Assembly (NCBI GenBank): GCA_958009085.1 | Contig: OY253677.1 | Span: 372,001-436,000, forward strand | Source of the DNA: Protoeuglena noctilucae | Taxonomy: Eukaryota | Length of the DNA: 64,000 nucleotides | Direction: 5' to 3' | The notes under the pieces: model-generated | The model's database searches: none | What the model was told of the DNA's origin: nothing | The model's input: only the letters and a program-made list of their open reading frames with translations | Shown: piece by piece, positions 12,701 to 56,622 of the stretch | How the letters are laid out: each line of letters starts with the position of its first letter | How positions within the stretch are numbered: position 1 is the first letter of the stretch | Made by a program: the position numbers and the translations under genes

Positions 12701-15529
12701 CATGTGCTTCTAATAAGAGCTGAGTCACAGGCAAGGACAGGGCACCATTGTCATCGACTGCCGCAATAAATGTCTACGACAGCTGCGCCACGGCGCTGGT
12801 GCCACCCTGTGCCTGTCAGCTAGCACTCGCCTGCAGTGCCACCATGCGTGGTCCGAGGTTGGCGACGTGGCGGGAGAGATCGGGGGGAGGGCGGAGGGGC
12901 ACGTAAGAGCCGTCCTGGGCCGGGGGCGGGGAGAGGCCGGGCCAGGGTGCAGGGTGAGTGCGGTGAGGGGCATGGCCGAGGCCGGACTGGACGGCAGGGG
13001 TGGTAGCTGCAGGTGCACCGGCGCTCGCGGCAGCTGGAGGGTGTGCGGGGGCACTTGGCGGATGCGCCGGTGCGGGCTCGAGGGCGAGGGGGGCCGCCTT
13101 GGCGGTCGTGTGGCTGGCGGCTTGGTTGCGACCTGCCATGTCGACGCCCGCTGGCCTGTCAACACCTGCTGGTCTCTCGATGCCCGCAGGTCTCTTTTCG
13201 GACGGCCCATGGGCAGGGGCCACGCCACGCGCCTCCTGGCCCGCCTCCTGCGCGCTGGGCACTGCAGCGTCTGCGGGGTGCTGCTGCGATGCGGGTTGCT
13301 GAGAGGCAATGGGGAGAGGCCCCAGGGTCGCGAAGAGGGGCTGGGACGGGCCGCGGTAGCTGAAGACTGGCTGCGGCGCAGGGAGAGACGGGCGGTGGTA
13401 CGAATGGTGCTGTCAAGCACCCGCAAGAAAGGTGTTGGACAAGCACATAGCAGAGGGGTGGTGCGGCAGGCAGACACCGTCGGCCAAGCTGCGCCAGTCG
13501 CAGTCCGTATGGCAGCAGGACCCCAGCCACCGTCACCTGACTCAGGAAGGCGTCCGCCAGAGACCCCAGCGCCGACCCCACGCCAACACCGGCATTCTCG
13601 AAGTCCAGCACGTCCGCCGCCCTCGTCGGCCCATTCTGTCCGTTCTGCCCCTTCCGGCCCTGGCCTCGGGCCTTGCGCCGGCGCCTACGACCCCTACTCC
13701 CGCCCCTGCCTCCCCCGCCCTCTCCATCCCCCGCCCCCTCGCCACGCTCCATCTCCTCCCCGGTGGTGGAAGCCCCGGCCACCGCCGCAGTGCCACCACT
13801 CGCCCCAGCCTCGTCACTCCCATCCCCTTTGCTCTCCTGGCCACTCGCCTCTGGCCTTTGCTGCCCTCCTGCCACACCCTCCACCTGCTGCACATCCCCA
13901 TCGCCAGCCTCCCGCTCCGTCACTGCTACCGAGTGCTCGGCTGCCGGACGTGTCTCAACAACTGTGGGCCCATCGCCTTTCTCCCCCACCGCAGTCGCTC
14001 TTTTCCTTCCGTCGGCCCCCACCCTCGTCCACACCGCCAGTGCTCCCGCCTCCATCTCAGCCATCCCACCTGCACCCATGACCCCAGCCTCGCCCGCTCC
14101 CTCACTCTCCCGTCTACCCGCCCCCGCATCCCCTGCACCTGCCCTCTCATTGGCCACTCCACCCACCCCCGCAGCTCCAGCACCCGCCCCCTCGCTAGCA
14201 CCCCACGCCGCCCCCCTCCGCCGCATCCCCTCCTCGATCAACGCCCGGCCCTCCTGGAGTCGCGCCAGGGCAGACTCAGGCGTAATGACGGACACGCCCC
14301 CACTCCCGGGCATGCCGAGCGCGTGCTCCGTGAACAGCACGCGGTAGGTCGCCATGGCTGCCCGCCTCGGTCCACGATGCCGATGCCCTCTCAGGCGACC
14401 TCTTCAGGGTGCCCCACTGCAAAGCGAGGGTGTCTTCACTGCCGCGTCCCCTCGCCCTCTCGGGAAGGGCCCACGGGGATCGCCAGGGCCCGCGGTTGCC
14501 GCCCTGGGACAGGCGCGTCTGCCAGACCCTGCAAAAAGGGAAAGGACCACGAGCGGGTGCCAAGGGACAAAGGTGGCTGTCCATGTCAGCAGCGAGCGAC
14601 AGCAACTGCGCATCGCTGCCCGGCGCCCGCATACCACACCCTCCGCTCTTGCTTGAGAGGCCTCTCCTGTCCCCCCCCGCACCGCACCTGAGGCAGTGCT
14701 CCGCACACCGCGTCCCTCAGCTCCAACACCACGTCCGCCTTGCCCAGGGGACTGAGCGGCTCCAAGGCCGCCCGCTCCTGGTCGTCCTTCGCCTGCCGCA
14801 GCGCCAGGTCCCAGTTCGCCTGGTAATTCTCCAGCTGCAGAGGGGACCGTGGAATCGGTTGTTTGTGGGCCATAAGGGCAACATCCGGCTATCCAGCGCA
14901 GGGATGGCTCCACAGTGGCGCAGGTGCAGGACGGCCAGAGGAGACCCCCGTGAAACTGCGGCCACGACACGGCCGATGTTCCCCGCACCCTGCGCACCTG
15001 CTTCCAAAAGATCTCCTGAACTTGCTTGTGCGCCCACTCGACCGTCAGCCCCAGCGAGGCCTCCGCCTGCGCCGCCAGGCCCACCTCCTCGCAGACCGAA
15101 GCCCACCCCGGCCAGTCCAGCGGGGGCACCACCACCGTCTGGTCGGAGAGCTCGAAGGCCTTCGAATACCGGGTCGTGCTGCAGCGACGGGAGCGGGTGT
15201 CCGAGCGTCAGCGGGCGGGGAGGGAGCGCAGCGCAGGGACGCTGTGGGAATTTGCGCCAGGGCGGGCGCAGCGATCGCCGAGCCGCATCTCGTGACTCAC
15301 AGGAAGGCGTCGAAGAGGACCTTATGCACAAGGTTCTTGTCGCGGACCTGTCCCTGCATTCGAAACCAGGCAGGGGCAGCGGGCGATGGGAGAGGACCGG
15401 GAGCGCGGATGCGGCCGGCCAACCCGTCAGGGCTCGGGAACAAGACTGCTCGGGTCGACTCTGCGCCCCTGGCGGTGGCGCAGGCGCGCGAGGCTCCCCC
15501 CAGCGCACCTTTGCGGGCGGTCCCGCCAT
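9783..15529 (-). CDS. Large multi-exon hypothetical protein (low-complexity, basic NLS-like stretches, MLCMGCFH motif); boundaries approximate
   Basis: A chain of minus-strand coding-like exons (e.g. ELDLIRAELESTFAVINGREVERRDLEWLLEG; LENYQANWDLALRQAKDDQER; RKRRRL) separated by GT-AG introns. No family recognised. Confidence 0.5.
12350..12494. repeat. Imperfect ~45-bp direct repeat within coding exon
   Basis: gagggcagggagggcggag(g/t)tg(aac/tat)ggccaggcaggtagggcgg occurs at ~12350 and ~12447 and encodes ALPAWP(F/Y)(T/N)SALPAL twice. Confidence 0.8.
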
Positions 15530-23919: not shown

Positions 23920-25989
23920 ATGCAGGCGGTTCTCCGTGCCCAGGCCCCCGTGGCCGCGGCCCCCCTCAACAGGCGAGTCGTCACGCCGCGTCCGGGCCCC
24001 GCCAGCCCGCGTCCGATCGTGCGCTCGCCTATGTGTGCGATATATCCCGCTGGACGCGTCCTACGTCCCCGGGGACCCCTGGGCGCGCCGGGACCCGGGC
24101 ACACCGACGCGCATGGGGAGGCGCCGCCCCGGGGGCCCCACGTCGCGCGCAGGCCCGCTAGCGCTGTCAAGGTTTCCAGATCGTGAAAACAGGGCCATCC
24201 GTCTCCCCGCGCGCTCCCCCGGCGCGGCCGGGAGGGCGCTCGTTCCGATCAGGTCGAAACCGGCCTCCTCCCCGCCCGCAGGGGCTCCCGCCTCGTGGCG
24301 CTCGCCTTCCGTGCCGAGTACATCTGGTGAGCGTCGGAGGATGGCGCGCGGGTCCCGGGGACCGCTGCCTGGTCGCGCAGAGCCCTGCCCAGGGCCGGGA
24401 CCTGCCCCCGCGCGATCCCCGACGGATCCCGCCCCCCGCAGGTACGATGGCTTCGAGGGCCACCCCAAGAAGGGCCTGATGTTCAACGAGATGCGCTCGA
24501 AGACCAAGTGAGCCGCCGGATAGTCGCGCTCCGATCCCGATAGGCGCCGCGAGCGATGGGGATGTGCATTTCTTGCACGACGCGACCCGGGGAGACGGTG
24601 TCGGGGCGCGCGCGCTGGGCCCTCCGCCGCGGGGCCGGAGGCGTGACTTGAGGCTCCCTCCGGCCCCTGCGCCACGGCCCGTGCGCTGTTCCTGGAACGC
24701 GCCGTTCGTCGCACTCCGTTTCTCACCCCACACCCGTCTCGTGCGCCGCTGCACGTTCTGCGAGGCCGGCGCGCGGCGGGGAGCCCGTCGCTGGCGTGCC
24801 CCTGCACCCGCGCCCGACGGCGCGGCCTCCCTCCCCCGCGCAGGGTCATCCAGAAGGACAACGCCTCGATGAACCCCTCCGACTACCCCGAGTGGTCCTA
24901 CGACGGCTCGTCGACGGACCAGGCCCCCGGCAACGACTCGGACCTTGTGCTCAAGCCCCAGTTCGTGTGCGCGGACCCCATCCGCGGCGGCAACAACGTC
25001 CTCGTCATGTGCGACGTCTACAAGAGCGACGGCAAGACCCCCGTTGACTCCAACCACCGCGCCAAGCTGGCGGCCGTCGTGAACGACAAGGTCAAGTCGC
25101 TGGACCCCTGGTACGGGTTCGAGCAGGAGTACACCATGATGGCCAGCAACGGCCGCGTGTACGGCTGGCCCCAGGGCAACGCCTTCCCGGCGCCCCAGGG
25201 CCCCTTCTACTGCGGCGTGGGCAACGAGGCCGTGTACGGCCGCCCCCTGGCCGAGGCCCACATGGACGCCTGCATCAAGGCCGGCCTGTGCATCTCGGGC
25301 ATCAACGCCGAGGTCATGCCTGGCCAGTGGGAGTACCAGATCGGCCCCGTCGGACCCCTCGAGCTGGGCGACCAGGTCATGGTGTCCCGGTGGCTGCTCC
25401 ACCGCCTGGGCGAGGACTTCGGCATCGTCGTCACCCTCGACCCCAAGCCCTCGACTGGCGACTGGAACGGCACGGGCGGCCACACCAACTTCTCCACCTC
25501 GGACATGCGCAAGGACGGCGGCATCAAGGTGAGGGGGGGAGAGGGATGTGCAGGATCGGGTGAAGGGCGGGAATGCGTGTGGGATGGCCCCTCACGGGAG
25601 GTAGGTAGCGTGGGTGACACACACAGCAGGAGCTTATACAGAGCGGGGCCCACTTATGGAGAGCAGGAGAGCCCCCCGTGATAGCTGACGGTCCCTGCCG
25701 CGCCGCGCCCTCGCAGGCCATCGAGGCGGCCGTGGAGAAGCTGAGCAAGCGCCACGCCGAGCACATCGCCGCCTACGGCATGGGGAACGAGCGCCGCCTG
25801 ACGGGCCGCCACGAGACGTGCGACATCAACACCTTCCGCTCGGGCGTGGCGGACCGCGGCTCCTCCATCCGCATCCCCATCGGCGTCTCCCTCGCCGGCA
25901 AGGGCTACCTCGAGGACCGCCGCCCCTCCGCCAACTGCAACCCTTGCATCGTCGCCCGCATGCTCCTCGAGACGGTCGTGCTCAACTAA
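23920..25989 (+). CDS. GLN2: Plastid glutamine synthetase type II (Chlamydomonas GLN2-like), 6 exons including a 30-nt exon at 24153-24182
   Basis: Transit peptide [28 protein letters not shown], then [81 protein letters not shown] and [11 protein letters not shown]. Confidence 0.95.
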
Positions 25990-33700: not shown

Positions 33701-35674
33701 GGATTGGGTGGGGGCATGTGGGGAAATGGGGAAGCAGGGAGGGGCAGGGTGGGGAGGGAGTCAACGTCTCTGCAAGGGGTTCACAAGAGAAAAGGGGGGA
33801 CCGGAGATCAGAGGGACGCACGTCACATCACAGCACGCCCCTCCCACGCAGGTGGCGGTTCGCGAGGCGAATGCGGCGGCGGCGGCGGACGCGGCGGTGG
33901 CGGAGAGGGACGCGGCAGTGAAGAGGGCGCAGGTCATGGCCGGGGAGCTGCAGAGGGCGCACGCGGCGGTGGTGGACGCCAGGGCAGAGGGGCGGGCAGA
34001 GGTGCATGGGCCATGGGCAGTGAGATGACCGTCACACTCACCCTCACTGCCACCCCCACCCTCACTGCCACCCCCACCCTCACTGCCACCCTCACCCTCA
34101 CTGCCACCCCCACCCTCACTGCCACCCTCACCCACACTGCCACCCTCACCCTCACTCCCAGGCCCTGAAAGAGCTGCGCCGGGAGGTGGAGGCGGCCAAG
34201 GCAGCGAAGGAGGAGGCACTGCGAGCGGCAGCATCGTCCGCAGCCGAGCGTCACCGCCTGGCGGGGCGGGTGCAGCTGCTGGAGGCGGAGTGCGGGGCTG
34301 CGGGGGAGGAGCTGCGAGCGCTGCGGGAGCGGCTGGCGGGGGCGACAGAGGCGGAGGTGGCGGCGTTAGAGGCGGCGCTTGCAGAGGCAGACGCAGACAG
34401 GGTGTCGCTGCGCGCGAGGGTGGAGGTGGCGGAGGGGGAGCGGGAGCGGGAGCGGCGGGTGGCGGCGGCGCAGCTGCGGGCGGCGGAGAGGCGGGCGGAG
34501 GAGGCGGAGGGGCGGGCGGCCAGGGCGGGGGAGAGGGCTGAGGCGGCGGAGAGGGAGGGGGCGGGTGAGGGGGGAGGGGAGGGGTGGCTGGGTGGGGGGG
34601 GCGTAGTGGGGGTGTGAGGAGTGAGGAGGGTTGCGAGGCCCTCACCCGCAGCCGCTGCCCCTCACCTCACCCCTCTCCTCGTCACTACTCTCCTTCTTTA
34701 TCTGTATCCATCACCCCTCTCCCCTCCTTCGCAGAGTCTGCCAAGTCCCTGGGTCTCCTGCAGGAGGAGGTGGATGCGTTGAGGGAGGACCTGAGGAGGG
34801 CGCAGGTGGAGCTGAGGGAGACGGAGGCGCGGATGCAGGCAAGGGGGGGGGAGATGAGAGGGGGGTTAGTAAGAGAGGGTGGGGGGGTGAGGTGTGGGAG
34901 GGAGACGGAGGCGCGGATGCAGGCGAGGGGTGGGGAGGTAGCAAAGGGAATGAAATGATGGGAGAGGGGGTGTGGTTGACGGTGAGGGGGGTGGGGAGAT
35001 GGGGAGAGCAGGGGAGGGCGGGCGACCGTGAGGCCTTGTGTCAGGTACATTCCCTCACCAACCCTCTACCTCTATCTCACCAGCTCTTTTTCATCCCCAC
35101 CTACCCTCCCTCGCCCCCAGGCTCAGCTGGACGCGGCACGGATGGAGGCCGAGTCTCACCGCGCAGCCAAGACGGCAATGGTGGAGGTGAGATGAGAGAT
35201 GGGGGAGGTTGGGGACGAGAGGGGAGGTTGGCAAGGGTGAGGTGTTTCTTTGTCTCTCATCTGTGCTCTAAAGGAGGTTGCCGAAAGGCCACTTATCAAT
35301 CCCTGTCGTTTCTAATAACCCCCCTTCACTGCGCTCAGCCAAGGACGAGGCTGTCAAATGCCATCTACCAATCCCTGTCCTTTCTCTCGNNNNNNNNNNN
35401 NNNNNNNNNNNNNNNNNNNNNNNNNNNNNNNNNNNNNNNNNNNNNNNNNNNNNNNNNNNNNNNNNNNNNNNNNNNNNNNNNNNNNNNNNNNNNNNNNNNN
35501 NNNNNNNNNNNNNNNNNNNNNNNNNNNNNNNNNNNNNNNNNNNNNNNNNNNNNNNNNNNNNNNNNNNNNNNNNNNNNNNNNNNNNNNNNGAGGGCGAGGG
35601 TGACCGCCCTCGCGAGGACGCGCGCGACGACAACCGCCTGCGCTAGGGGGCATTGCAGGGGCCGCGCTGAGTAG
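30774..35674 (+). CDS. Long coiled-coil protein, CEP89/SCLT1-like (centriole distal appendage); 3' part interrupted by an assembly gap
   Basis: Multiple E/A/R-rich coiled-coil exons. PWLSDGEVLPPLLAAYDRRIAELE...IELLSKENDLVTQQLE resembles the recalled CEP89 PWLLD.KYLSPLLLAYED...ENKLLLEQLE segment. The stop position is uncertain. Confidence 0.5.
34035..34158 (+). repeat. Intronic 18-bp minisatellite (ctcactgccacc[cc/ct]cacc)n, about 7 copies
   Basis: Directly visible tandem array ending just before the ccccag acceptor. Confidence 0.9.
35390..35589. other. Assembly gap (200 N)
   Basis: Run of N, preceded by two copies of ta(t/c)caatccctgtc(g/c)tttct about 73 bp apart, suggesting a collapsed tandem repeat. 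Confidence 0.99.
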
Positions 35675-41343: not shown

Positions 41344-44300
41344 TCAGAGCACGGCCAGGAAAAGGAAAGCAGCTAGGGTTGCATTGCTCGCCGCAATCAC
41401 AACTGAACTTGACTGTTTCGTCGGCACAGGCGTGGACGGAGTGGATCCAGGGACTGAAGAGGGTGCGGAAGTGGTGCTGGTTGCAGCGGACGCCACCACG
41501 GATGGGACTGCGATCTGGTAGAGTGCGGAGGTGGAGTCGGCCGCCGCGGCGATGAGGGCCGATTGGATGTCCGTGGCCAGTGCCGAGCCGGTCCCGACTG
41601 CCGTCACCAGTGCCTGGGCTGCTGTGTCGGTGGCAGCAGCCACAGCAACGTTGAGGTTCACCGCCACCTGTGAATAGGAATGGACATCAGGATATGGGAA
41701 TGCAGCTCTTCACGACCAAGCACTTTTTGCAAAAAGCGCATGCAAGCACTTTCAGCGAGCAGCAGCACTCACGTCGAGGAGGGCACGGCGCGACGTGGAA
41801 GCCGTGACGACGACCGACGAGGTCGGCACGCCCAGCTTGGCGGCTACGGTGCTTTGGACCTGGGCCTCGATAGCAGCCAGCACGATGCTCGAGGGCTGGG
41901 TCCTGAACGAGAGCGTGACCGTGAACTTGGCCTGGGGAGTGCCCGAGGCGATGGGCGTGGGGCTCGGGAAGAGGTCGTTGATGACGATGTTCATCGAGAA
42001 CACGTCCGAGGTCTGGTAGCCCGAGCCCGCCGTCTTGGGGCTGCACGACAGCACCAGCGTTGTGGCTGAGCCGGTGACGCTGGGCATGGCCGACAGGTAC
42101 ACGGCCGTGGAGGACGTGGTGACGGCGATGTCGGGCGTGGTGGCCGTGGAGGACGCCAGGACCGAGCCGGTGTAGGCGGGGGAGTTCTTTTCGTTGGTCA
42201 GCGTGCAGTGGACCGTGACGGCCTGGTTGAGGGCCTGCAGGTTGATGAGGTCGCCTGCCGCATACTGCGTCAGCTCGATGGCCTGGATGGACGTGACCTG
42301 GGAGCCAGCCGTGAGCGCCTTGCCCTTGGAGTCGGTGACAATGGCCTTGGTGCCCGTCACGAACACCACCGTCTGGTTCCGCACATAGACGTCGAACTTG
42401 GCCGTCTCGGTCGTGTACCCGCCGGCCGACGACGAAGGCGTGCATGGGTAGGTCACCGTCTTGTCGGCGCTGATGGTCAGCGAGGTCGGGATGGTGACGC
42501 TGACGGCGCTGCCGCCCACCAGGTTGCTAGTCGTGGACATGGAGAGGGCTGATGTGATGTTGGGCAACGTGGCAGTGTCGCTCGATGTGCACGTCACAGA
42601 GACGGAGGCCGTCGGGGGGACCGTCGTGTAGAGCTTGACCAGGGCACCGGACGTGCTGCTCTGGAGCTCAAATACGGCCGGCGTGAGCGAGGCCGAGCCC
42701 GAGGCCAGGAGGGTTCCGCTGGCGACCGACGTGCCGCTGGCCGTCGTGGCCGATGAGCCGGCCACGGCCACGAGGGCGCGAGCGAGGACCACGACGTTGA
42801 ACTCGACGCTCTCAGTGCCCTTGTAGGGCGCGGAAGCGCACACCACCGAGCACGTGTAGGTCACGGTCGTGTTCTTGGTCACGGCCGCGGGGTTGCGCAG
42901 AGACAGGGCCGCGCCGGCGTTCAAGAGGCCCGAGACGGTGACGTCCGTCATCACGGCCGTGTTGCTGGACGCGCAATAGACGTCCACGGCCACCTCTTTG
43001 TTGGTCGAGTCCAGGGCGGGCGTCTTGGTCATCAGCTTGACCGCGTCGCCGCTGCCAGCGTACATGATGAGCAGCGGCGCCAGGGGTGCGGTGGTCGTGC
43101 GGCCAATGTTGGTGCCGGCCGTGATGGACAGGAGCGTCGAGCTGTCGAGCGAAGACGAGCCCGCCAAGGCCATCAGGCCGTAGTAGTATATGTAGATGTT
43201 GAACGTGACCACATCAATCGTGCTCAGGCCGCCAGCCGTAGTTGTCGGGGCGCACAAGTAGGTCACAATGTAGTCACCACTCAGGGACCCCTTGGGCGTG
43301 GGGATCTGTATTTTGACCGGCGTGGTGCCTGAAACGGAAAGGCCCGTGATGTCGGCCAGCACCGTTGAGGCGCTGCTCATACAGCCGAACGCGACCGTGG
43401 CGGTGGCCGTGGCGTTCAGGCTGATGGTCGCGACGGCACCCGAAGTCGTCGACTGGCCATACATGATGGCGGGCGTGATGGCGAGCGAACCGCCACCCGA
43501 GATGTCCGTGCCGGAGGCAAGCGCCAGGTTGGTGTCCGCGCGGAGGGCGGAAGAACCGGCCTTGATGGTGGGCTTGAGGGCCACGACCTTGATGTCAAAG
43601 AAGACCGTCCCTGTCACCGTCGTTTTGGCCACAGCTGGGGTCGTCGGGGCAGGGATGGCTGCGGAAGTGGACGTCCTCGTTGGAGTGGATGTAGGCGCGG
43701 GCGTCGAGCTTGGCGTGGTGCCAAACGGGGTCCCGGAGGGCGCGGGCGGAGCTACGGAGCCGGGGGTGCACGTGTAGGTCACGGTGGTGTCAGCAAAGAC
43801 GGATGAGGCCACCGGGATCGTGATGGGCACGGCGGTGGCGGTCGAAAGGGACACGTTGTTGATGTCAGCGAGCACGGTCGAGTCGCTCGATTTGCACGAA
43901 TAGGTCGTTGCCTTTTGGGGGGCCGCCGTGGCCTGCAGGGCCACGATGGTGCTGGAGGCCGCCGCGCCCTCGTACACGACAGGCGTGCGCGAGGCGATGC
44001 CCGAGCCGAGGATGGAGCCGCCGGCAGTGAGAGTCGTGGTCCCGTCGGCGGCCATGCCCGCAGCCGAGCCCGCCACGACCTGGGCGGTGGGGTTGGAGAC
44101 GAACACGTCAAAGGTGACGCTCACGGTGGTCGCGAAGCCCCCAGACGCGGCGCTGGGTGCGCACGTGAAGGTGACGAGCGTGCCCGCCGAGACGACCGCG
44201 GGAGTGGGGAGGACCAGGTTGACGGCGGCGGTCGTCGAGACGGAGGTGGCTGCCACGTTTCCGATGACGGTCTTGTTGCTCGACGTGCACACGTAGCTGA

Positions 44301-47300
44301 CGGCAGCAGTGGGGGCCACATTAGCCTTGAGTGCGACCGTGGAGCCCGCAGCATAGGTGAAGCCCGCGTAGAGCTGCACCGTCTTGGCCAGGGACCCACC
44401 GCCGCTGATCTTGGTGGACGTGGAGAGCCCCGTGTGGCCGTCCGCGGCCGTGAGCGCCACGCTGGGGTAGACGTCGACCATGCGGGGCACGACCGTCACG
44501 TCGAACGTGAACGAGTCGGCCGTGGTGAGGCCGCTCGCGTTGGCCGTAGGGGCGCACGTGAAGGTGACCGTGGTGGCCGTCGAGACGTCGCCAGCAGCGC
44601 CGAAGGTGAGGCCCACGGCGGTGGTGGACGACACGCTGGCCGTTTCGTCCGCGAGGGTCTTGCTGTCGAAGGACATGCACTTGTAGGTCACGGCGTCCGA
44701 GAGAGTGCCGTTGGCCACCAGCTGGACGAGGGCGCCGGCAGCGGGGGTCACGGTCGTCACGATCGAGGGCGTCTTGGCAGCGTTGCCCGAGGCCAGGGCA
44801 GTGCCCTGCGCCAGCATGGCGCCGGCGGCCGTGGTCGCAGCCGTGCCGGCCTGGGCAGACACCGCCAGGGGCACGACCGTCACGTCGAAGGTGGACGTGT
44901 CGGAGGTCGTCACGCCGCCCGCAGCGGCCGTGGGCGCGCACGTGTAGGTCACCGTCGTTGCCTTGTCGATCTGGCCGCTCTGGGGCAGGCCCACCGATAC
45001 GGCCATGGTGCTGTTGACCTGGACCGACGACACGCTGCCGAGCACGGATGTGTTGGAGGACATGCACGAGTAGGTGATGGTCGCCGTCGGTGTAGAGTTG
45101 GCCTGCAGCGCCACCACATTGGAGATGCTGCTCGCCGCCGCCAACTCGATGATCTGCGGGGTGGCCGATGCCTTGCCCGACACCAGCATGGTGCTGGTCG
45201 TCATGGCCGTCTTGCCATCCGCGGCCGTCTGGGCGGTACCGCTGTAGGCCGCGACCACGATCGCCTTGACGTGGACCGTGAAGGCCACGCTCTCGGACGT
45301 CGTCAGGCCACCCGCGCTGGCCTTGGGGGTGCACGTGACGATGACGTCCGTGTCCGCGTTGATGGAGCCCGGGATCGGCAGCGTGATGGCCGCCTTGGTC
45401 GACGACAACGTGACATCCGAGATGGTCCCGATCACGCTCGAGTTGTTGCTCGAGCAGGCATACATGACCGACACGCTGGCCCCATTGTTGGCCGGCGTCG
45501 TGTTGGCCAGCAGCTCGACGGTCGTGCCAAGGCCAGTGGACTGGCCCTCATAGAGAACAAAGGACTTGCTCGAGGGCAGGGCCGTGTCCGCAGCCAGGGT
45601 CGTGCCGTCGCTGAGGGTCTGCGAGGAGGCTGCGGCTGCTCCAACGCGGATGGCCACCACGTTGATCCAGAACATGACCGAGTCCGTAGTCGACAGGTTT
45701 CCGAACGCTGCGGTGGGCGCGCACGTGTAATTGATCTGCACGTTGGCTGTGCCCATGTTGGTTGGGGCGGGGAGTGTGATGGCGTTTGCATTTGTGTCGT
45801 TGGTGATGGACACAGAGTCGATGTTAGGCATGATATTCGTGTTGTTGGACGTGCACTTGACCGCGCCCGTCCCACCCGGTGCCACGTTCTGCTGCAGCTT
45901 TACCTTAAAGCTATCAAAGCCTGCGCCCTCGAAGACCTGCATAGCTAGCGCAGCGTTGAATGCCCTGCTTGTCAGGTCAGTAGATCTGCTGCCGAAGGCC
46001 GTCCCGTTGCCGTTCAGAACAGTGGCAAAGGCGGGCACTGGCATCAGCTTGGCGCACATGACATGCACATCGAACTTGACCGTGTAGTTGGACGGGGCCG
46101 TGCCCGTGAAGACGAACCCGCCGCCGCTGGTGGGCGAGCAAGTGTAGGTGACAGTGGTGTCGGCCGAGATGCCCGTCACCGCCGGGATCGTGAGGGTTGT
46201 CACGCTCGTGTCCGTGATGTTGAAGGCCGCCACGGCAGGGGCGATCGTCGTGTTGCTCGAGCTGCAGGAGAAGGACACAGTGCCGGCAGGGGCGTAGTTG
46301 AGCTGGAGGCCGATCTGGCCGGTCGACGAAGACCCCTCGTACAGCACGGGCGTCATGGACGTGGAGCCGGTCGTCGAGTAGCTAATGGAAGTGCCCGAGG
46401 CGATCGCGGTGCCGTCCGACTGGCGCGTCAGTGTGGATGCGCTGACCACCGCAGAGACGGAGCGCGGCATGATCGTGACCTGGAAGCTCACGGCCTGGCC
46501 CGCCAACACGCCCGTCGGCGCGGGCATGGACGCAACCGTGCACGTTACGGTGACCGGAGCAGCCGCACTGGTTGTACTAGGAGCAGGAAAGTCAATGGAT
46601 GCTGTGGTAGCGCCACTGACCGTCACGGTGGCGGGACTGGCCAGGACCGAGGGCATGTCAGTTGTGCACAAGATGGTGGCCGTGGCCGAGTTGCCAAATT
46701 GGAGCGTGGCAACAGCGCCAGAAGCCGTGTCCTCGCCCTCAAAGATGCGGGGCCTGAGGCACGTGGAGGTACTCAGGACGGTGCCCGCCATGATCTGGGC
46801 TGTCGGCCTCGTGCTGCGGTAGGCAGCAGAGCCCGCGACCGCCTGCATCTGAGGCGTCACGTCGACGATGAAAGCCGTCTTGATGTTGGACCAGCTGCTG
46901 TCACCGCTGGGAACGGTGCACTTGACGTAGATCTTGGTCTGCGTCGTCACGTTCTGGATCGTGATGGTCGTGGCCGTCCCGAAGATGCCGTGCGCGGCGA
47001 TGTTGTTGGCGGTCGACCCGCTCGTGTTGGCAGTCGTGGCAAACGTAAACGTGTCCGAGGTCGTCCCGCTCACCGTAAAGGCCCTCGAGGCTTTGGAGGA
47101 GAAGGCGGCATCGCTGTACGCTGTGCAGGATACAATGCTGCCCGCTGTTAGAGGAGTGTTGGCAGCTCCGTTCTGGAACTTGAGCGTCACCGAGTCCCCG
47201 CCGACCTGGGACGCAGTACCGAAGGCCGTGCTGATCATCGGGTTGTTGGGGGCCCAGACGGACGTGGTGTTGCCGCTGACCTTGAGGAGGACGATGTCGC

Positions 47301-50300
47301 CGTCCGCCACAGACGGGTAGGCTGTGCCGAGGGTCAGGTTCTGCCCCATCGTGGCTCCGGAGGTGCCGAACGACTTGGTGTAGTCGGTCGAGGTGGCGGA
47401 GTCGGGGAGGTTGATCGTGTTGCCGCTCGTGCACGTGACGCTGATGGAGGCACCCGCGTTGTCGCCGTTGAGCTTCACAGCGAACAGGTAGCCCGCGGTG
47501 GGCGCGAGGTACTCCTTGTCAACGACCTTGACCGTGCTAGGCACGATGGTGCTCGAGCTGAGGGAGCTCCCGCTCGTCAGGGACGTGTTGGACCCGGCCA
47601 CAATCAGGATTTGCATGGGCTGGATGACAATGGTGACAGAGAAGCCGTCCGTGGTCAGCAGGTGGTTGGCCGCCGTCGTGACCTTGCACGTCAGCGTGAT
47701 GGTCTTCGAGGTCGTAATGGAGTTCGGGGTGTTGAGGGTCATGTTGACGGCAGTCGTGTCCGTCACGGCAGCCGCCGTGGGGGTCGCGCTGAAGTCGCTC
47801 GTCCCCGACTCGGTGCAGGTCAGCGCGTTGGCGCCACCCGAGTTGCCGTTCAACGCAACCTTAAGCACCGTTCCACCCACGTCAGCCTGACCCTCCACCA
47901 CGACCACCTGGCCGAGGGAGCTGCTGCCGATCGTCGACACGATGGCCGTGTTCGCGCCATACGCCGTCAGGTTGCCCGTGCTGTCGACAGACTTGTACGC
48001 GGCCGACTGGGCATACACCACAAAGGCCAGCGGCTGGAGCGTGATATTGAGCTGGAAGCCGTCGGACGTGGTCAGGTGGTTGCCAGCCGTAGTTACCCTG
48101 CATGTCAGCGTGATGCTGACGGGGGAGCTCAGGTCTGCGACCGTCTTCATGTCCATTGCAACCTGGGTCGTGTCGGTGACGTTCGCAACCGTGGGCACAG
48201 TGCTGCTTGCGAAGCTGGAGGCAGTGGCCGTTGTGCACGTGAGGGCGTTGGCGCCCCCCGATGCACCATTCAGCGAGACCTTGATCGTGCTGCCCGCCGT
48301 GTCAGTCTGGCCCTCCAGCAGGTACACCGTGCCGTTGGACGCCCCGCCGATGGCAGCGGTGATGGCCGTGGCTGTGCCAAACGTGGTCAGCGCGTTGGTC
48401 GACGCCACGCCCTTGATGGCGCCCGACTGGGCCGTCACGATGAAGCCCAGCGGCTGCAGGGTGATATTCACACTGAAGCCGTCGCTCGTCGTCAGGTGGT
48501 TGCCCGCCACCGCCACCGTGCACGTCAGCGTGATGGTCTTGGCCGTGGACAGGTCGGCAACGGTCTTCATGTTGATGGCCACGTCGGTTGCGGTCGATAC
48601 GGGGGCCACCACCGGCAGCAGGCTGTTGGAGAAGTCGGTCGGGGTGGTGGTCGCGCACGACAGGAAGTTAGAGCCGCCCGAGTTGCCGTTCAGCTGCACC
48701 TGGAGGACGGAGCCGCCGGGGAAGTTGCCGACCGTAATGCCGCCGAGCGGACTTGAGAGAGCTGATGCCAGACCCAGGGAGACCGCGGCTGCGCTTGTCG
48801 AGCTGACCGTGTAGGTGATAACAGTCGACACGTACTGTGAGAAAGGCCATGTGAAGGTTATTTTGTCGCCGGCAACAAACGTGCCACCAAGGTACACAAT
48901 ATCCACGGCGGGACCTGGATGGCCTGCAAGCACAGCATTAGCATTCTTGCCAAAGCCTGTGCTGCCTGTCAACTGCGTCACAGTAACCATGTAATTTGGG
49001 AAAAATTTTGAAAGACCAACGGGAAATTCTGTATTTCCATCTGACGCCGTGATGGTGAAGGCGTTCGTCGTGCTGAGCGTGGCTGAGCCGTTGAGCACCT
49101 CAGAGAGCAAGGAGGCGAGGACGCTCGCAATAGTGGTGGTCGTCGGCACGGCCTGGGCATTAAGCGTCAGAGTAATCTCCACATTCCCTTGGGTCACTGC
49201 GATGACGTTGCCTCCCGCAGGTGTCCCGCCGATGGTGATTGTGTCGATCTGCTTCGTCCCCGACGAGTTGGCCGTCCTCGTGGCCTGGGCAGCCGTCGCC
49301 CCACCCCCCGTGGTAGTGACCGTATAGGTCGGCAGCGCTGTGCCGGCCGTTGTGGCGGTGATGGTGACTACAGCCGCACTGCTGGAGATCGCGGCCCCAT
49401 CAAGCTGCGGGCCCAGCGCGGTCTTGAGCCCTGCAACGACCTGCCCCAGACTGGTCCCGTCCGTCGAGTTGACCGTATACTTCCACGACACGGCTGCCCC
49501 GGTATTACTGTCTTTGCCAGCTATCGTGATGGTGTCGGTCGCTTTGAACGTCCCGCCCAAAGCAATCCCGACAACCTGTGCCACCCCGATTCCGTCGACG
49601 ACCAAAGTAGCCATGCCCCCCATGGCGCTCGAACCGACACCGACTTGGTTAACGGCGACTGTGTAAGAGTCAATTGGCGACCCTGCCCCGGTGGCGTTGA
49701 GCAAAAGCACGTTGTCACTGGCAATGGTGACTCCACCCAAGGGAAACGCCAGCGCGGCCCCGACCCCCGCACCCACGTTGATGGAAGTAGTCCCGTCTGT
49801 TGAGTTCACCTTGTACGTCACAGAGGACGTCACGCTGGCACTCGGATTGAACTCCACAGCCACAGAGTCTTGATAAGCTGCCGAAAATGTACCACCCAGG
49901 ACCAAGAGATCCTGCTGGGCGCCAGTTGCACTCGCCACGTTCACCGTCTGCTTGGTGGCTGTGCCATTGGTCGAAGACACCGTCACCTTGTATGTAAACG
50001 GCGTGTTCACCGCGTTGGCCGACAGCACGATGATGGTGGCGTCGGCGGTCCCGGAGTCCACTTGGCCCTCCAGCAGGTACACCGTGCCGTTGGACGCCCC
50101 GCCGATGGCAGCGGTGATGGCCGTGGCTGTGCCAAACGTGGTCAGCGCGTTGGTCGACGCCACGCCCTGACTGACTGACTCTCTTCACAAGGCTCACAGC
50201 TAAGATCGCGGATCTACCTCTTGCCACTATCGCCCGGGGCCCTCGAGCAGTGGCTTCAGCCGCTTTGGCAGTGCCAGGGCCAGCAACTACCAACGCCAGG

Positions 50301-53300
50301 GAAGCTTGCATCAGCGGTGTAGAGTACATCACCACCGCCTAGCCACAAAGAAAAAAGGCGTGAGACATGAAGCCGTCACGCCGCTCAAGGGGGCACCCCC
50401 TTGGGAATGGAGCGCCCCGGGGGGCGGAGAGAGACAGCCCAGGAGGGCGGCAACACTCAGAACGAGCGGAGCAACACCCACCGGGGAGGCCCGGCGGGGG
50501 AGGAAGGCGCCCCGTGGGGCGGGAGGAGAAAGCCCAGGAGGGCGGCAGCACCCGAGAAGGGAGGAGCAACACCCACCGGGGGGGCCCGGCGGGGGAAGAG
50601 CGGCTGGCAGAGGGGGCGGGGCTGCGTAGTGGGCAAGCCGGACGAGGCGCTTGCCCCGAAGCAAACCACGGCCGGGCAGGCACGCAAAACGCAACCACAC
50701 CAGCGCTACAGGCCGCGGAGACACACAGGCAGGCGGGAAAGAGGCGAGGCGCGGCGGCGCATCGGGCGCAGCACCACAAGCTGGGCGGGCGCGGCCGGGG
50801 CCAGGCAAGGGGCCATGGCGCTCAACGGACACGCGCGCGGCCGTTTCTAACCTCTGCATGCGGGAGGAAGGGCGCGCGGGGGCGCTGGAGGGGCGGGCGC
50901 GCGGGGTCGCGCGCCGAAGATCTCGGCCAGGCCGGGACGAAAACTCGACGGAGCGCACGCAGATCGCGGCGCCGCTTCGGGAGACGCTCTTGAATGAAGA
51001 GAAGAAGCTCGGGAAGGCGAGGAAGACTGCCCCCCACGCCGTATGAGACGCCCGTGGGGGGGGATGGCCGACCAGGGGTCGGGAGCCGCGCTCGCCACTC
51101 AAGGCGCCAACACGCGTTGTTTTTGGACCGGCTCTTAGCCACCGGGCTGGGGCGGGGCCACGGTGTTTCCAGAGTTCGCCACGGGGAGGCGGCCGGCGGG
51201 ACACGAGCCCGAGAGACTCCGGTCGACGCCACGCCCTTGATGGCGCCCGACTGGGCCGTCACGATGAAGCCCAGCGGCTGTGCCACCAGGTTGAAGCTGA
51301 AGCCGTCGCTCGTCGTCAGGTGATTGCCGGCAGCGGAGACGTTGCAGGTGACGGTGACGCTGGCCGCCGTGTCAATGTCCGCAACCGTCTTCAGATCCAC
51401 GGCAACCTGTGTCGTATCCGTCACAGCAGCCACAGTGGGGACCGTGCTGCTCACAAACTTGGTAGCGTCCCAAGCCTTGCACGTCAGGGTGTTGCTGCCG
51501 CCCGAGGGAGCGTTGAGCGCCACCTTGAGCGTGTTGCCAGGCGTGTCGGCAGTGCCCTCAAGCACGATGACGGTGCCGTTAGAAGTCCCGCCAATGACGG
51601 CAGGGATGGCGGTCGCCGACCCGTACGTGGTGAAGACGTTGGTCGAGGCGATTGACTTGTTAGCCGCTGCCTGGGCGTACAGCACGAACTTGAGGGGGTC
51701 GGCAATGACCGTGAAGGTCACGCTGTCGGTGGTGCTGAGGCCGCCGGCGGCCGAGCTGGGGGCGCACGTGATCGTGATGGACTTCTGCGCGCTAATGTCG
51801 GCGACCGTGCCGATGGTGAGGTCGAAGGGTGTGCTGGAGGAGATGGTGCTGGCGACTGTCACGCTGGGGATGACGGTCGTGTCGCTGGGCGTGCAGGTGA
51901 TGGTCACCGCGGCGGTCGGGGCCGAGTTGGCCTTGATCGTGACCGTGGCGCCCGCCGTGTCGACCTGCGCCTCGATGCGGACCACCCGGTTGTTGCTGGA
52001 CGTCAGGTCCGTGTCAGCACTAAACATGGTATACCTGCCGTCAGTGTTGATGGACTTGATCGCGCCCTTCTTGGCCGTGATGACCAGCTTGAGCGGGGTG
52101 GCGACTATGTACGTCGACGCCGTGCTGTAGACGCGCCCAGCGCCGTTGGTGGCCGTGCAGGTGAGCAGGACGTTGGAGGCAGCGCTGATGGGCTGCACTG
52201 CAGGGAGCGTGATGCCCATGGCTGAGGTACCCGAGCCGCTGGCGATCGAGACCGTGTAGTCGGTGCTGGTCGTGCTGTTGGCGAGGACGCTGCTCATGGA
52301 GCTGTCCACCAGGCACGTGACAGTCAGGGGTTCGGGTGCGCTCCGGTCGAGGATGACCTGGACGAGACCCCCCGAGCCGTAGGCGTAGCCCTCGACAGCG
52401 ATTATGCTCGTGCCGGGGAGGATGGAGAGCACCAGCGGGGTAGCCGTGACCGTGACCGTCGCCGTGTCGGTAGGCGTGGTCTTGGCCGAGGAGAGGTAGG
52501 CGCCCGTGACATCTGCAGCAACGGCGCACGTCAGGGTGGCGTCCGCAGTCATCAGATTCCCAACGCTGGCCGTGGGGGCAGGTGTGGCCGTGGGAGCAGG
52601 GGTCGAGGGCGGCGACGGGGTGGCAGCCGTGGTGGGCGCGGGGGTGCCCGCGGTCGGCGTGGTGGGTTGGGTCGGCATGGCGACACCGGTGCCTTTCTTC
52701 AGCGGGAAGGCCGTGTCGACGGTCAGGGCCCCCGAGTACGCGGTGAGCTGACCACTGGAGGACACGGTGTAGAGGGCAATGTCGATACCAAGGATTTGAG
52801 GGAATGACGTGCCCACTTGGTCACGCCCACCGGCGTAGATCAGCATCCACGTGTTGGTCTGCGGAGGGAGCTGAGTTGTGCGGTGATGCTTACTGCTAGT
52901 GGAAGCAGTGGAAGAGGCAAACTCGGTAGCAGCGCTCACCACGATGGCAATCTCGACTACCGAGGCATGAGGGTTGCCAGGGCAGGCACTCGACGTTCCG
53001 TTGGTAGTGATGTCCGGCATGTCGTCCGCACATGCGCTGGCGGTGCCGATCGCATCATTGACGGGGTCGTAGGTGAAGACACTCAGCACCGTGTCATACG
53101 TGCTGTTGCAGGACGTAATCAACGCCACGCACTGCTGCCCGCCGCAGTCGGAGGTGGCTCTGGGGGACGGCGTGGAGACAGCAATCAGACATAGCGGCGC
53201 GCTCGCATACGCTTGGGCTGCAAGCATGGTGGCATGGCCACACTCACTGGAAGGCGAAGTAGGCGTCAGCCCCAGCAAAGGAACCGAGGGTTTGCTGGCA

Positions 53301-56300
53301 CGCCGAGAGCACGTCCACGTTGTAAGGCCACTCCTCGATGCGGAAGGCCGCCGAGTAGGGCAGCTGCGTGACCACGATGGGATTCTGCATGGTGTCACCC
53401 AAAGGGGCCCGGGTGTCCGCCAGTCGCACCGAGTAGACACCCCCATATGCGGGAAAGAGGGGCAGCGGCACATTCGTGGAAGGAAGCATACGAGAGCTGC
53501 ATCGGCGATCGCGGCGTGGCATCGCGCAGCGTGGCCCCCCACCAAAGTTGTCGTCTGATGAGGACGCCACTGCGTCGATGAAGACGCTGGGGGGGCCAAA
53601 ATAGGCCGCGGAGGTGGGCTCCACCACCCCGGTCTGCCCCGTGGCGTTCCCGGAGGCATCGTATATGGGCCGGGCCAGGGCGCCATAGTCCATGCTGACG
53701 TTGACATTAACCGTCTGAGCCTGGTTCCAGTTGCCTGCAAGTGAGCAGGCGCGTGCGTGGCATGCCGAGGGGCGAGCAGGCAGCGAGGTCGTTCCCACCT
53801 GGCACACCGATCCAATGTCGCACGGAGATCGGCAAGGCAAGGGTGGCATGACTCACCCGGCGTGAAAGTGAGCGAGCTGGTGCTGAGCGCGACACCGGAC
53901 CAGGTGCTCGAGACGGCCACCGTCACGTCCGCGGCTGGCTGGGCCGCCAGCTGCAGGCCCACGCTGGTGCTGCCCACGCGGGTGGTGATGTCCCACAGCT
54001 GGACTGTGGCGGTGAGGGCCTTCTTGGTCAGCGCCCGGGAGTACACGAGGTTGGTCGTGCCCTTGGACGCGTGCTGCGTGATGGCGCCGGACGTGGCCGT
54101 CAGGCATGCGGGGAACGGGGGGTGGGCGCAGGGTGCGGCGGCGAGGGAGCGAGGCAGTAGATGGATGTGTAGACCTGCTCTGTGAACGAAGCACCAGAAC
54201 ATCTACCAGAACATCTATGCCTCGCTCACTCTCGACGATGTGCTTCAACGCAAGGATGTCGATCTCCGTGTGCAGGGCCAGGTAGGCTGCTGCCGCCCCT
54301 GCCACGATGGGCGCGGACATGCTTGTGCCACTGAGGATGTGCCAGGGGCCATTTCCGCACTCGGCCACACGACCGAACTGAGGGAAAGAGGCGGGCGGGA
54401 GACACTGGGATGATGGGATGAGGTGGTGGCATGCAGGTGACAAGGAAATGCTTGGGTGGCCCCACAGTCAGGAGAGGGTGCATGGCAACTGTCGTCAAGA
54501 CGAGGCTCCTGCGGCCTCACACCTCGTTGCACGCGCCAAGGATGAAGACGCCAGGTGCAAACAGATCGACGCAGCTGCCGACATCAGAGAAGCTGGCGAG
54601 ATTGTCCATGAAGCCCGGGTAGGTTATTGAGGCTCCAACGGTGATGCCCCTGCATGGCGTGGAGGACGCAGATGGAAACTGACATTAACTCCGCGCCGTC
54701 CTGGCAAGGTCGACACCGCAAACTCTGTCGCAATCTCACCACGCAGAAGCGGCCGGAGACCCTGCGCACGCGTCCTGGGCCTCATTGCCCGCTGCCACGA
54801 CCGGGAGGATGCGCGACTGCACTAACTGATTCAGCAGGCGGCTCTGGTCGGAGTCGATGGTCGGAGAGCCATGCAGGGGCGGATTGTTGGGGATTAATGA
54901 GGGCATGGCCGCAGTCTATGTACAGTGCAGCACCTCCTTTTAAGCAATCTAGTAACTCACGAAAGACATGTTGACGACCGCCGGCGCGACGGGTGGGCTT
55001 GCAGCCGCCATCTGGAGCATGAGGTCTGCGGGGCCAAGTGTGGGGGGTGCAGCGGTAAGGCTCATGCACGAGGGCACCTTGATGCCGCGCTTCTGCACTG
55101 CGCCGCACGGCTGTATGGTCTGCCTTTGCGCCCCTCACCCACGGCTTGTGTCAAGGCAGTGCTGGCCAACGAGCCACTGTCGTCCGCCACCTTGAACGAG
55201 TAGATGTTTGCGCTCTTGGCCACGCCAGCCTGGTTGCCCGCCGCGAGACTCGCAACGTGCGTGCCATGGCCTACCCAGTCTGGGAGCCCATCAGGAACAC
55301 AGAGACGAGTGAGTTGTGCTTTAGCACCGATAGCAATGGGGGCAGAAAGGGACACTTGCCAAGTGTCACCGTAGTCATCGGGTCTTTCGCTTGAGGAGTA
55401 GGCGTTGAACGACAGCGTGACGCGGCTGACGCTGGCGTCGGTCTCGCAGTCGGCCTGGGTCGACCCCGACTGGAGGAAGTCGGGGTGACACTGCGTAGGG
55501 AGGGAGAGAGGCACAGGAGCATATCGCTTCTCATGACACCCTCGGCGCGCTGGCATGGGACGCAACACGACTGTCCTAGCCATCTCGATGCTCTGACAAG
55601 CCGCAGCGCCGCATTGACTGGGCACCTGGAACACGCCCGTGTCCGCGATGAAGACGTTTGCCCCAGTGCCCTGGGAGTAGTAGATGTACTTGAAATCCAG
55701 GGGAGGGTTTCGCTGATCGATGCGGTCCAAGTGAGTGAACTGCGAGACAGGATGCTCCGGGGGCATTGTGGGGACATGCATCGCGGCGACTAGTCGCTCG
55801 CGGCAACGTGCATGTAGACGGCTGTCCTGATAGCTCCCCAGGACAGGCAGCGAAAGCACCCGCGAGCGGCAGCCCGCGCCCTGCTCTTACCGCTCCAATG
55901 CTGCTCCCAATGCTTTCGATGGGCTGCGTTTGGGCGTTGGAGTTTGACGTCTGCCGCAGGACTCGGCCCAAGATGTGCAGCTCTCGGTCCTCATACACCC
56001 CGATAACTGCATGGCAAGGGCAGGAAATGCTCTTACCCCGCTCCCTACTCTCACTGCCAACCGCAACAGATCCAACTGGCCAGCGCCCCTCACTGTCGTC
56101 AGAAAGGGCGGCCAGTCCGCCGTGAAGGTCACCCTCGGCGCCCTGCACGACCATGGCCGGCCCCACGCGCGTCAGCACGCCGTGGCAAGCCAGGCCACCC
56201 TGCCCCGCTGCGCTCCCCGACCCCAGCCGCCCGCACAGCGCCTGCGCCCGCCCCTCGGACCCGGGCTCCAGCGTGACCAGCCACCGGGCAGAGGAAGCCT

Positions 56301-56622
56301 CCGAGAGGTTCCTGGGCCGCGCAGGCTCCAAGTGCCGCTTGTAAATCGTGAACCCCGACGGACTGCAGGACCAGGGTGGGTTGGGTTGGGTAGAGATTTG
56401 GAAATTTATGCCACGTCGCGCCGCCTGTTGTCCGGGCCGCGCAGGGCGCCAGGCCATTATTCCGTTGATTTATCGAAACCGTGTGACGGGTGGGGCAAAA
56501 GCGAATTGCGGCGCTGCGTACCTGGCCACGGAGAACATGGCGGCACGGGCAGCTGCTGCGAGGCAGAGAGCGGCCAGGAGCCCGAGCCCGCATCCGCGGG
56601 AAGCATGAGCGAGCGTCCTCAT
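41344..56622 (-). CDS. Giant (~4,200 aa, 16 exons) secreted S8A subtilase with I9-like prodomain, ~19 Cys-paired beta-repeats, SEA-like domain and GPI signal; interrupted by a retroelement
   Basis: Signal peptide MRTLAHASRGCGLGLLAALCLAAAARA. Catalytic motifs HLDRIDQR, ADTG, GHGTHVAS, VVNMSF, VVAAGN, VDLFAPG and SGTSMSAPIVAG. ORFs 50822..54202 and 41752..50163 join in frame once 1,069 bp are removed. Last exon 41667-41344 ends SSSVVIAASNATLAAFLFLAVL*. Confidence 0.85.
48308..48456. repeat. ~149-bp identical internal repeat of the giant gene; carries the empty version of the retroelement target site
   Basis: 48308-48413 equals 50063-50168, and 48397-48456 equals 51221-51280. Confidence 0.9.
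50412..50595. repeat. ~95-bp tandem duplication inside the retroelement
   Basis: gcgcccc...agcccaggagggcggca...ggagcaacacccaccgggg(a/g)ggcccggcggggg occurs at ~50412 and ~50507. Confidence 0.85.
51128..51220 (-). ncRNA. HDV-like self-cleaving ribozyme (nested double pseudoknot)
   Basis: P1 GGAGU(C)UC/GAACUCU with G1-U wobble; J1/2 hairpin CGGG..CCCG; P2 CCGGCC/G(A)GCCGG; P3 GCC/GGC with L3 UCCCCGU; P1.1 CC/GG; P4 CACCG-UGGC..GCC-CGGUG; J4/2 GCUAA with catalytic C at 51138. Confidence 0.88.

Follow-up and report, generated by a model that had tools for sequence, protein, structure and literature searches.

A 64,000-nucleotide stretch of the genome of Protoeuglena noctilucae (assembly GCA_958009085.1, contig OY253677.1, positions 372,001 to 436,000 of the forward strand; hereafter the window, in which positions are counted from its first base) raises the question of what has been inserted into a giant open reading frame (ORF) on its minus strand and by what route it arrived there. 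We regard the insert as rather likely to be a non-autonomous retroposon of the type without long terminal repeats (non-LTR), dependent on a long interspersed nuclear element (LINE), of which the first ~94 bases appear to encode a self-cleaving ribozyme resembling that of hepatitis delta virus (HDV). It occupies positions 50169..51220 (minus strand; 1,052 bp, element base n being window base 51221-n) and is bounded by two exact copies of a 17-mer, one at the 5' end of the element (51221..51237) and the other at its 3' end (50152..50168). The window contains the 17-mer exactly three times, starting at 48397, 50152, and 51221, and three or more matches appeared in none of 100 dinucleotide shuffles with up to two mismatches permitted. 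Its remaining occurrence, at 48397-48413, lies in a paralogous uninterrupted ("empty") site (48308..48456), a 149-bp patch identical to the flanks of the insert, over 106 bp on the left (48308-48413 = 50063-50168) and over 60 bp on the right (48397-48456 = 51221-51280). The perfect 17-bp target-site duplication around a 1,052-bp insert and the single empty copy of the 17-mer in a paralogous repeat, both of which had been claimed in an initial annotation of this DNA, were thus borne out. Because the ungapped identity beyond the patch falls to 35% on the left and 63% on the right, it probably arose by recent gene conversion from one repeat unit of the giant gene to another. The insert landed inside one copy of this patch, and no second copy of the insert was found within the 64-kb window.

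The 3' end of the element, read on the minus strand like all its parts, is an (AGTC)3 tail (50169..50180), and the two bases that follow it, AG, are part of the target duplication, giving 2 bases of microhomology. The tail is preceded by a stem-loop (50223..50254) of 6 bp and 3 bp around an internal mismatch and by an internal tandem duplication (50412..50596; period 95, 1.9 copies, 88% matches), and a 9-bp GC hairpin (51030..51061) lies downstream of the ribozyme. The hairpin and the 3' stem-loop were both present in minimum-free-energy (MFE) folds, with energies not beyond those of shuffles, and all four of these parts had been recognized in the initial annotation, in which the duplication was given as ~95 bp. 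It had also been stated there that neither tRNA A and B boxes nor a reverse transcriptase or endonuclease ORF was visible; consistent with this, ARAGORN reported no tRNA gene in the insert, a B-box consensus had no match inside it with up to one mismatch, Rfam gave no 5S or 7SL match, and Pfam gave no family at E ≤ 1 in 10 insert reading frames. The hallmark of a short interspersed nuclear element (SINE) is a Pol III promoter inside the element, of tRNA, 7SL, or 5S origin, and assignment of the insert to the SINE class was therefore rejected. Non-LTR retroposons make target-site duplications of variable length, about 5-20 bp, have no terminal repeats, and end in poly(A) or a short tandem-repeat tail. 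The insert shows the 17-bp duplication, no terminal repeats, whether inverted or direct, in the repeat listing, and the (AGTC)3 tail, and it fits a LINE-dependent retroposon because of the duplication, the 3' stem-loop, and the tetranucleotide-repeat tail.

The ends of the insert (50169-50186 and 51211-51220) share a weak inverted match, GAsTCTCT (7/8 bases), which may be fortuitous or may reflect priming or template switching; within its 5' end the insert also contains AGTC, the unit of the tail. The same inverted match is the one feature in favor of a DNA transposon, but no transposase was detected by Pfam, there is no real terminal inverted repeat, and, to our knowledge, a 17-bp duplication exceeds those of the DNA transposon superfamilies. 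An assembly chimera, in turn, is countered by the internal sequence of the insert being reproduced on three public contigs (see below). We hence consider it very improbable that the insert is a DNA transposon, an insertion of some other kind, or a chimera.

The 5' end of the insert folds in prediction as an HDV-like ribozyme of which the predicted cleavage site is at the insert boundary, as the initial annotation had proposed for the minus strand. HDV-like ribozymes are nested double pseudoknots in which P1, P1.1, P2, P3, and P4 follow a canonical order (PMC4908430), and all of these helices can form, in that order, in bases 1-94 (51127..51220), with cleavage predicted directly 5' of G1 (51220). 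In such ribozymes L3 and J4/2 supply the catalytic core, which includes a conserved C, and scission falls at the first P1 nucleotide, a position that in retroelements coincides with the element's own 5' end. P1 joins bases 1-7 with bases 44-50 (51214..51220 with 51171-51177) by 5 contiguous pairs and 6/7 pairs in total, including a G1-U50 wobble at the cleavage site. It is followed by J1/2 (bases 8-23; 51198..51213), in the 16 bases of which a 3-bp GGG/CCC mini-hairpin, possibly a P1.2, can be read, and by the 6-bp P2 (bases 24-29 with 89-94; 51192..51197 with 51127-51132). The stretch 51178..51190 holds the 3-bp P3 (bases 31-33 with 41-43, GCC/GGC) and its 7-base loop L3 (bases 34-40, UCCCCGU), the cytosines of which can pair with the GG of P1.1 (bases 51-52; 51169-51170). 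The P4 hairpin (bases 56-81; 51140..51165) has 5 bp, a one-base bulge, and then 3 bp, and J4/2 (bases 82-87, GCUAAG; 51134..51139) provides the candidate catalytic C at base 83 (51138). The P3-L3 stretch differs at just two positions from primers directed at the conserved catalytic part of R2 ribozymes (PMC3414825). At ~94 bases, the predicted ribozyme as a whole is a compact candidate for a self-cleavage assay.

The position of this fold coincides with a boundary that was defined independently of it, as the predicted cleavage G1 is the first base past the duplication, and a script search over all positions up to 70 bases upstream found the best P1 partner at insert base 1. When the ribozyme core was kept and its flanks were shuffled in 20,000 trials, an adequate P1 anywhere was obtained in 3,563, a P2 of at least 6 bp in 248, and a P4 of at least 5 bp in 1,005, whereas all three helices arose jointly in 4; an adequate P1 at the exact position of insert base 1 was obtained in 46. 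The core motif itself matched once in the window and in none of 100 shuffles.

The same core was also found outside this genome, in 60 loci of metagenome contigs (61 matches), and was not found in viral contigs. Three of the 61 matches were too close to a contig end, leaving 58 that could be analyzed, of which 28 satisfied the test for all three helices and showed covariation, their P1 strands being mutually complementary in 18 different versions; the failures come mostly from a single large family, in which the script probably set the P1 register wrongly. The J4/2 sequence GCUAAG is present in all 61 matches, an invariance that follows from the construction of the pattern. Six loci were compared with Rfam, and five of them scored 27.4-45.2 bits against HDV-F-prausnitzii, with nothing at E ≤ 1 for the sixth (L019). 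Among 13 loci with at least 1.2 kb of downstream sequence, which were examined for ORFs, three (L009, L019, and L045) carry ORFs matching Exo_endo_phos and RVT_1 that follow the ribozyme closely on its own strand, and the remaining ones are bacterial-looking or have no family. In these three loci, the ORFs for an apurinic-type endonuclease and a reverse transcriptase begin 500-800 bases past the ribozyme (that of L019 has 842 amino acids and runs off the contig), and the three are predicted to be autonomous LINEs headed by an HDV-like ribozyme with the same core. Two further loci, L025 (853-939) and L041, are 88%-identical copies of an element of ~870 bp with a GC content of 63-64%, and their similarity begins exactly at the ribozyme G1 and ends in a (TTCTGA)n tail. 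They thus provide, by their sequence organization, an independent example of the architecture of the insert, from ribozyme G1 to short tandem-repeat tail. Like the insert, they begin at G1 of a ribozyme with the same core, are GC-rich, and have a hairpin, in their case ~45 bases before a hexamer tail, whereas they have no similarity to the insert outside the core and no visible duplication. Outside the ~29-base core, the insert bears no resemblance to any of the 60 loci.

Two other groups of metagenome loci carry the core in different settings. In L059 (1585-1648 and 1940-2003), HDV-like ribozymes recur in tandem 355 bp apart with conserved sequence upstream of G1, and L004, L013, L015, L023, L029, L036, and L040 belong to the same family, which resembles a satellite carrying ribozymes, or a source of small circular RNA, more than it does the 5' end of a retroposon. 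In L002, L006, L008, L011, and about 30 other loci from the same few samples, a large multi-copy family shares the core and a long P4 of 11 bp. Its P1 was not placed by the script, which may mean a long J1/2, and the family probably represents a eukaryotic repeat present at high copy number in these samples.

A possible life cycle can be outlined for the element as a LINE-dependent retroposon. Having no recognizable promoter, it would be transcribed within a longer host transcript, and the ribozyme would cut directly 5' of its own first G, leaving an RNA 5' end exactly as in the DNA copy. The 3' stem-loop, presumably the recognition structure for the partner reverse transcriptase, and the (AGTC)n tail would be bound by the reverse transcriptase/endonuclease of an autonomous LINE, and target-primed reverse transcription from nicks staggered by 17 bp would yield a full-length copy with a 17-bp duplication. 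What we infer in this scheme is self-cleavage, co-transcription, the partner LINE, and current activity. On a more tentative footing, we suggest that green algae harbor an active or very recently active promoter-less retroposon system of which the 5' end is set by an HDV-like ribozyme, with the present copy in a coding exon of a giant surface-type protein gene, a suggestion that we hold to be quite possible and yet a little short of probable. If this is true, the copy, lying in the sense orientation, would both exploit the transcription of the giant gene and cleave the pre-mRNA of that gene; among the elements that we found described, no other retroelement with an HDV-like ribozyme would lie outside metazoa and trypanosomatids; and through its partner LINE the strategy of processing by a ribozyme would reach Viridiplantae. 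The combination of a 5' ribozyme with a 3' stem-loop and tail gives a handle for finding that partner LINE in the host genome.

Several results weigh against reading the insert as a ribozyme-headed retroposon, and a first set of them concerns the ribozyme. A scan of the whole window at the Rfam gathering thresholds gave no match, and on a 131-base stretch at the insert 5' end the minus-strand matches, which in favor of the fold were to the two HDV ribozyme families alone, stayed far below threshold, with 15.3 bits for RF02682 (HDV-F-prausnitzii; threshold 44) and 14.1 bits for RF00094 (HDV_ribozyme; threshold 50). In both alignments P1 is misplaced onto bases 15-22, for which the 16-base length of J1/2 is the apparent reason, and UCCCCGU is aligned to L3 and GCUAAG to J4/2; the insert in this way illustrates that curated covariance models miss HDV-like ribozymes with a long J1/2. 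In addition, P1 has just 5 contiguous pairs, the MFE fold energies of the two insert ends were no better than those of shuffles (z = -0.14 and +0.56), and the core pattern was derived from the insert itself, so that its own match is not independent and the helices and the boundary alone are. These points would suit a retroposon carrying a decayed or fortuitous HDV-like fold that does not cleave, with its 5' end set by a promoter or by chance: the Rfam scores are sub-threshold, the 5-bp P1 contains a mismatch, and the fold energy is unremarkable. Against such a non-cleaving fold, the helices and their coincidence with the exact boundary are jointly very improbable in the shuffle test, and an identical core is present in sequences with scores as high as 45 bits. 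The translation of the ribozyme stretch is also unchanged in all three public variants of the insert described below, which is weak evidence given their low divergence. Taking both sides together, we consider a non-cleaving fold unlikely.

A second set of adverse results concerns copies of the insert. A family of non-LTR retroposons would leave several copies with shared termini and differing duplications. As a proxy for a copy search, an open frame of 309 codons, which covers the greater part of the insert, was compared with protein collections. It matched one 90% cluster with three members of 291 amino acids, all at least 98% identical: P0123, identical to the window, on a 2,734-bp contig; P0124, with one residue different, on a 2,676-bp contig; and P0125, with four residues different, one of them in common with P0124, on a 1,066,337-bp contig. 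No further match and no distant relative was found among 1.84 billion representatives, DNA patterns specific to the element gave no match in viral contigs or GTDB genome contigs, and the number of variants, three, equals that of the assemblies that seemingly come from the same or a very close organism. There was also no reverse transcriptase in the window among the 50 ORFs scanned out of 59 with at least 250 amino acids. A large or old family is thus not supported, and the variant data are compatible with just one or two copies per genome. Of the retroelement proposed in the initial annotation, the insertion, the 17-bp duplication, the non-coding nature, the predicted 5' ribozyme, and the 3' stem-loop and tail stood; the multi-copy family, for which the three variants with at least 98% identity were all that was found among about 15 billion predicted proteins, and its mobilization in trans by an algal LINE are conjectural. 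Mis-assembly at the internal repeat, which had been named there as a possible objection, is disfavored because the three public contigs are all collinear through the tandem duplication.

A low copy number would also be expected if a host or LINE-derived transcript that happened to start with an HDV-like ribozyme had been reverse-transcribed once by LINE machinery, leaving a one-off or very low-copy retrocopy with no dedicated family. The three closely similar variants, their agreement in number with the apparent assemblies, and the lack of diverged relatives favor this explanation, and the presence of the frame on short contigs (2,734 and 2,676 bp) suggests a sequence that is not highly repeated. 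On the other hand, a dedicated element would require just such a stem-loop and tandem-repeat tail together with an exact full-length 5' end, and L025 and L041 show that short ribozyme-to-tail elements multiply. P0125 also suggests, indirectly, a second locus. Glutamine synthetase, of which the gene lies in the window with its ORF 25 kb from the insert, has a parallel set of records, its contigs measuring 3,469, 3,403, and up to 330,167 bp, and P0125 may well lie at a locus different from that of the window insert because glutamine synthetase was never recorded on its 1.07-Mb contig. We therefore regard a one-off retrocopy as unlikely, if slightly less so than a non-cleaving fold.

Ribozyme-headed non-LTR elements and their non-autonomous derivatives have already been described, and what is new here is the green-algal host lineage. 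R2, RTE, Baggins, and L1Tc elements carry a 5' HDV-like ribozyme and follow a strategy of co-transcription and self-cleavage (PMC6765202), release from a co-transcript by the ribozyme is used by the non-autonomous R2 and R2/R1 short internally deleted elements (SIDEs; Eickbush and Eickbush 2012, PMC3414825), and NARTc and SIDER are non-autonomous relatives of L1Tc/ingi in trypanosomatids (PMC3383444, PMC4035085). The predicted 5' ribozyme of the insert fits the same strategy. The R2 and R2/R1 SIDEs of Drosophila are, like the insert, short and without an ORF and have a 5' HDV-like ribozyme, which in the insert is predicted; they are not transcribed by Pol III, of which the insert shows no hallmark, and their 3' end hijacks the target-primed reverse transcription of a LINE, as is proposed for the insert; hybrid R2/R1 SIDEs have 14-bp duplications as compared with 17 bp here (PMC3414825). 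They differ in being specific to 28S rDNA, co-transcribed by Pol I, and demonstrably identical at their ends to R2 or R1 elements of the same species (PMC3414825). The insert, by contrast, has a protein-coding exon as its target, an (AGTC)n tail, and a green-algal host. "SIDE-like", the term of the initial annotation, may fit the insert in a loose sense; in the strict sense it calls for ends identical or similar to those of an autonomous LINE of the same genome, and no such parent was found, the window ORFs scanned having yielded no reverse transcriptase.

RTE elements have short tandem-repeat 3' tails, and RTE and Baggins elements with ribozymes of the drz-Agam-2 type were reportedly described by Ruminski et al. 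in 2011. These elements are dispersed, have no promoter of their own, and are transcribed from the host or a neighbor, as proposed for the insert (PMC6765202), and the HDV-like ribozyme at their 5' end has an enlarged J1/2, as does the one predicted in the insert (PMC4908430). RTE and Baggins elements are, in contrast to the ORF-less insert, autonomous, with an endonuclease and a reverse transcriptase, and metazoan. In NARTc and SIDER, the HDV-like ribozyme at the 5' end of the respective LINE has been retained, and these elements are freed from long co-transcripts (PMC3383444, PMC4035085). They differ from the insert in that their first 77 bases double as an internal promoter (Pr77) and in their unrelated host lineage. 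Their tails are poly(A).

Within plants and the green lineage, ribozyme-bearing retroelements are represented by retrozymes and Penelope-like elements (PMC4918200, PMC8557442). These carry hammerhead ribozymes and LTRs or pseudo-LTRs, and retrozymes have 4-bp duplications, none of which applies to the insert; the green-lineage clade of Penelope-like elements is described as having no canonical hammerhead motifs (PMC8557442). No HDV-like ribozyme retroelement of green algae or plants was found in the literature, a provisional result with subscription journals mostly outside its coverage and Dfam and Repbase uncompared, and to that extent it agrees with the initial annotation, in which no described green-algal example was known. 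The documented range of 5' HDV-like ribozymes on non-LTR elements is animals and trypanosomatids, and the green-lineage ribozyme-bearing retroelements that were found described carry hammerheads instead; a chlorophyte example would widen that range, and the insert is a clean and apparently young example of a retroposon.

The insert interrupts the giant minus-strand ORF in the sense orientation. The part of the ORF downstream of the insert (41752..50184) has 2,810 codons from stop to stop, and the part upstream (51221..54202) runs 133 codons into the insert to a stop at 50822. When the insert and one copy of the duplication (1,069 bp) were removed, a minus-strand frame of 3,793 codons with no stop was obtained. 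The product consists of Thr/Ser-rich repeats, each of ~140 residues, in which there recurs a motif, "LTC...AGNHLTTSDGF", and no Pfam family was found in the giant ORF. The otherwise intact frame and the sense orientation could point to a spliceosomal intron created by the insertion, similar to an introner, in a gene that still functions. Together, the end of the element and the first two bases of the duplication read CAG/G, and a GT in the upstream copy of the duplication would give a 1,066-base intron, leaving 3 extra in-frame bases. However, the donor, GTGGCG, is unlike those of the two mapped introns of the glutamine synthetase gene (AAG/GTGAG...CGCAG/G), and the acceptor has no pyrimidine tract. 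A very recent insertion predicts an intact frame equally well, and a ribozyme in the pre-mRNA would compete with splicing. There is, accordingly, little likelihood that the insert is an intron, and as a retroposon copy it probably inactivates or at least interrupts a gene of ~3,800 codons. Such an insertion may be a strain polymorphism of functional interest.

A homolog of the giant ORF, P0133 (3,458 amino acids), was found in a public protein collection with 81% identity over 2,830 amino acids. It is collinear with both unique flanks and passes straight across the insertion point, with the insert absent. P0133 is recorded on a 330,167-bp contig, and four ORFs of the window that are present letter for letter in the public collection, namely 10937-12703 (-), 13162-14355 (-), 24869-25678 (+), and 55579-56457 (-), one of them the glutamine synthetase (P0128), likewise come from a contig of this length. 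P0133, once a candidate for the orthologous empty site, was for this reason reduced to a homolog without the insert. It may be a linked paralog and not an ortholog, and linked paralogous giant genes are likely; whether paralog or ortholog, its predicted sequence serves as a second comparator without the insert. A search with the 400 amino acids upstream of the insert against proteins of 701-2,000 amino acids gave no identical protein and just a 69% homolog, the 1,126-residue host frame that runs into the insert had no exact match in the protein collection, and a Protein Atlas search with the host repeat was uninformative (best score, 0.80).

The window is eukaryotic and green-algal in its sequence character, and the host is on the same grounds a chlorophyte-type green alga. 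The best named relatives of the glutamine synthetase, the gene of which is split by introns, are from Chlorella, Pedinophyceae, Trebouxia, and Chlamydomonas (62-70% identity), the GC content of the window is 60-71%, and fragments of ankyrin, acyltransferase, and subtilase sequences are also present. The subtilase (Peptidase_S8) fragment, at 55065-55886 (-), sits just upstream of the giant gene, in the same orientation, and may be part of it. A scaffold gap in the window is marked by 200 consecutive N at 35390-35589.

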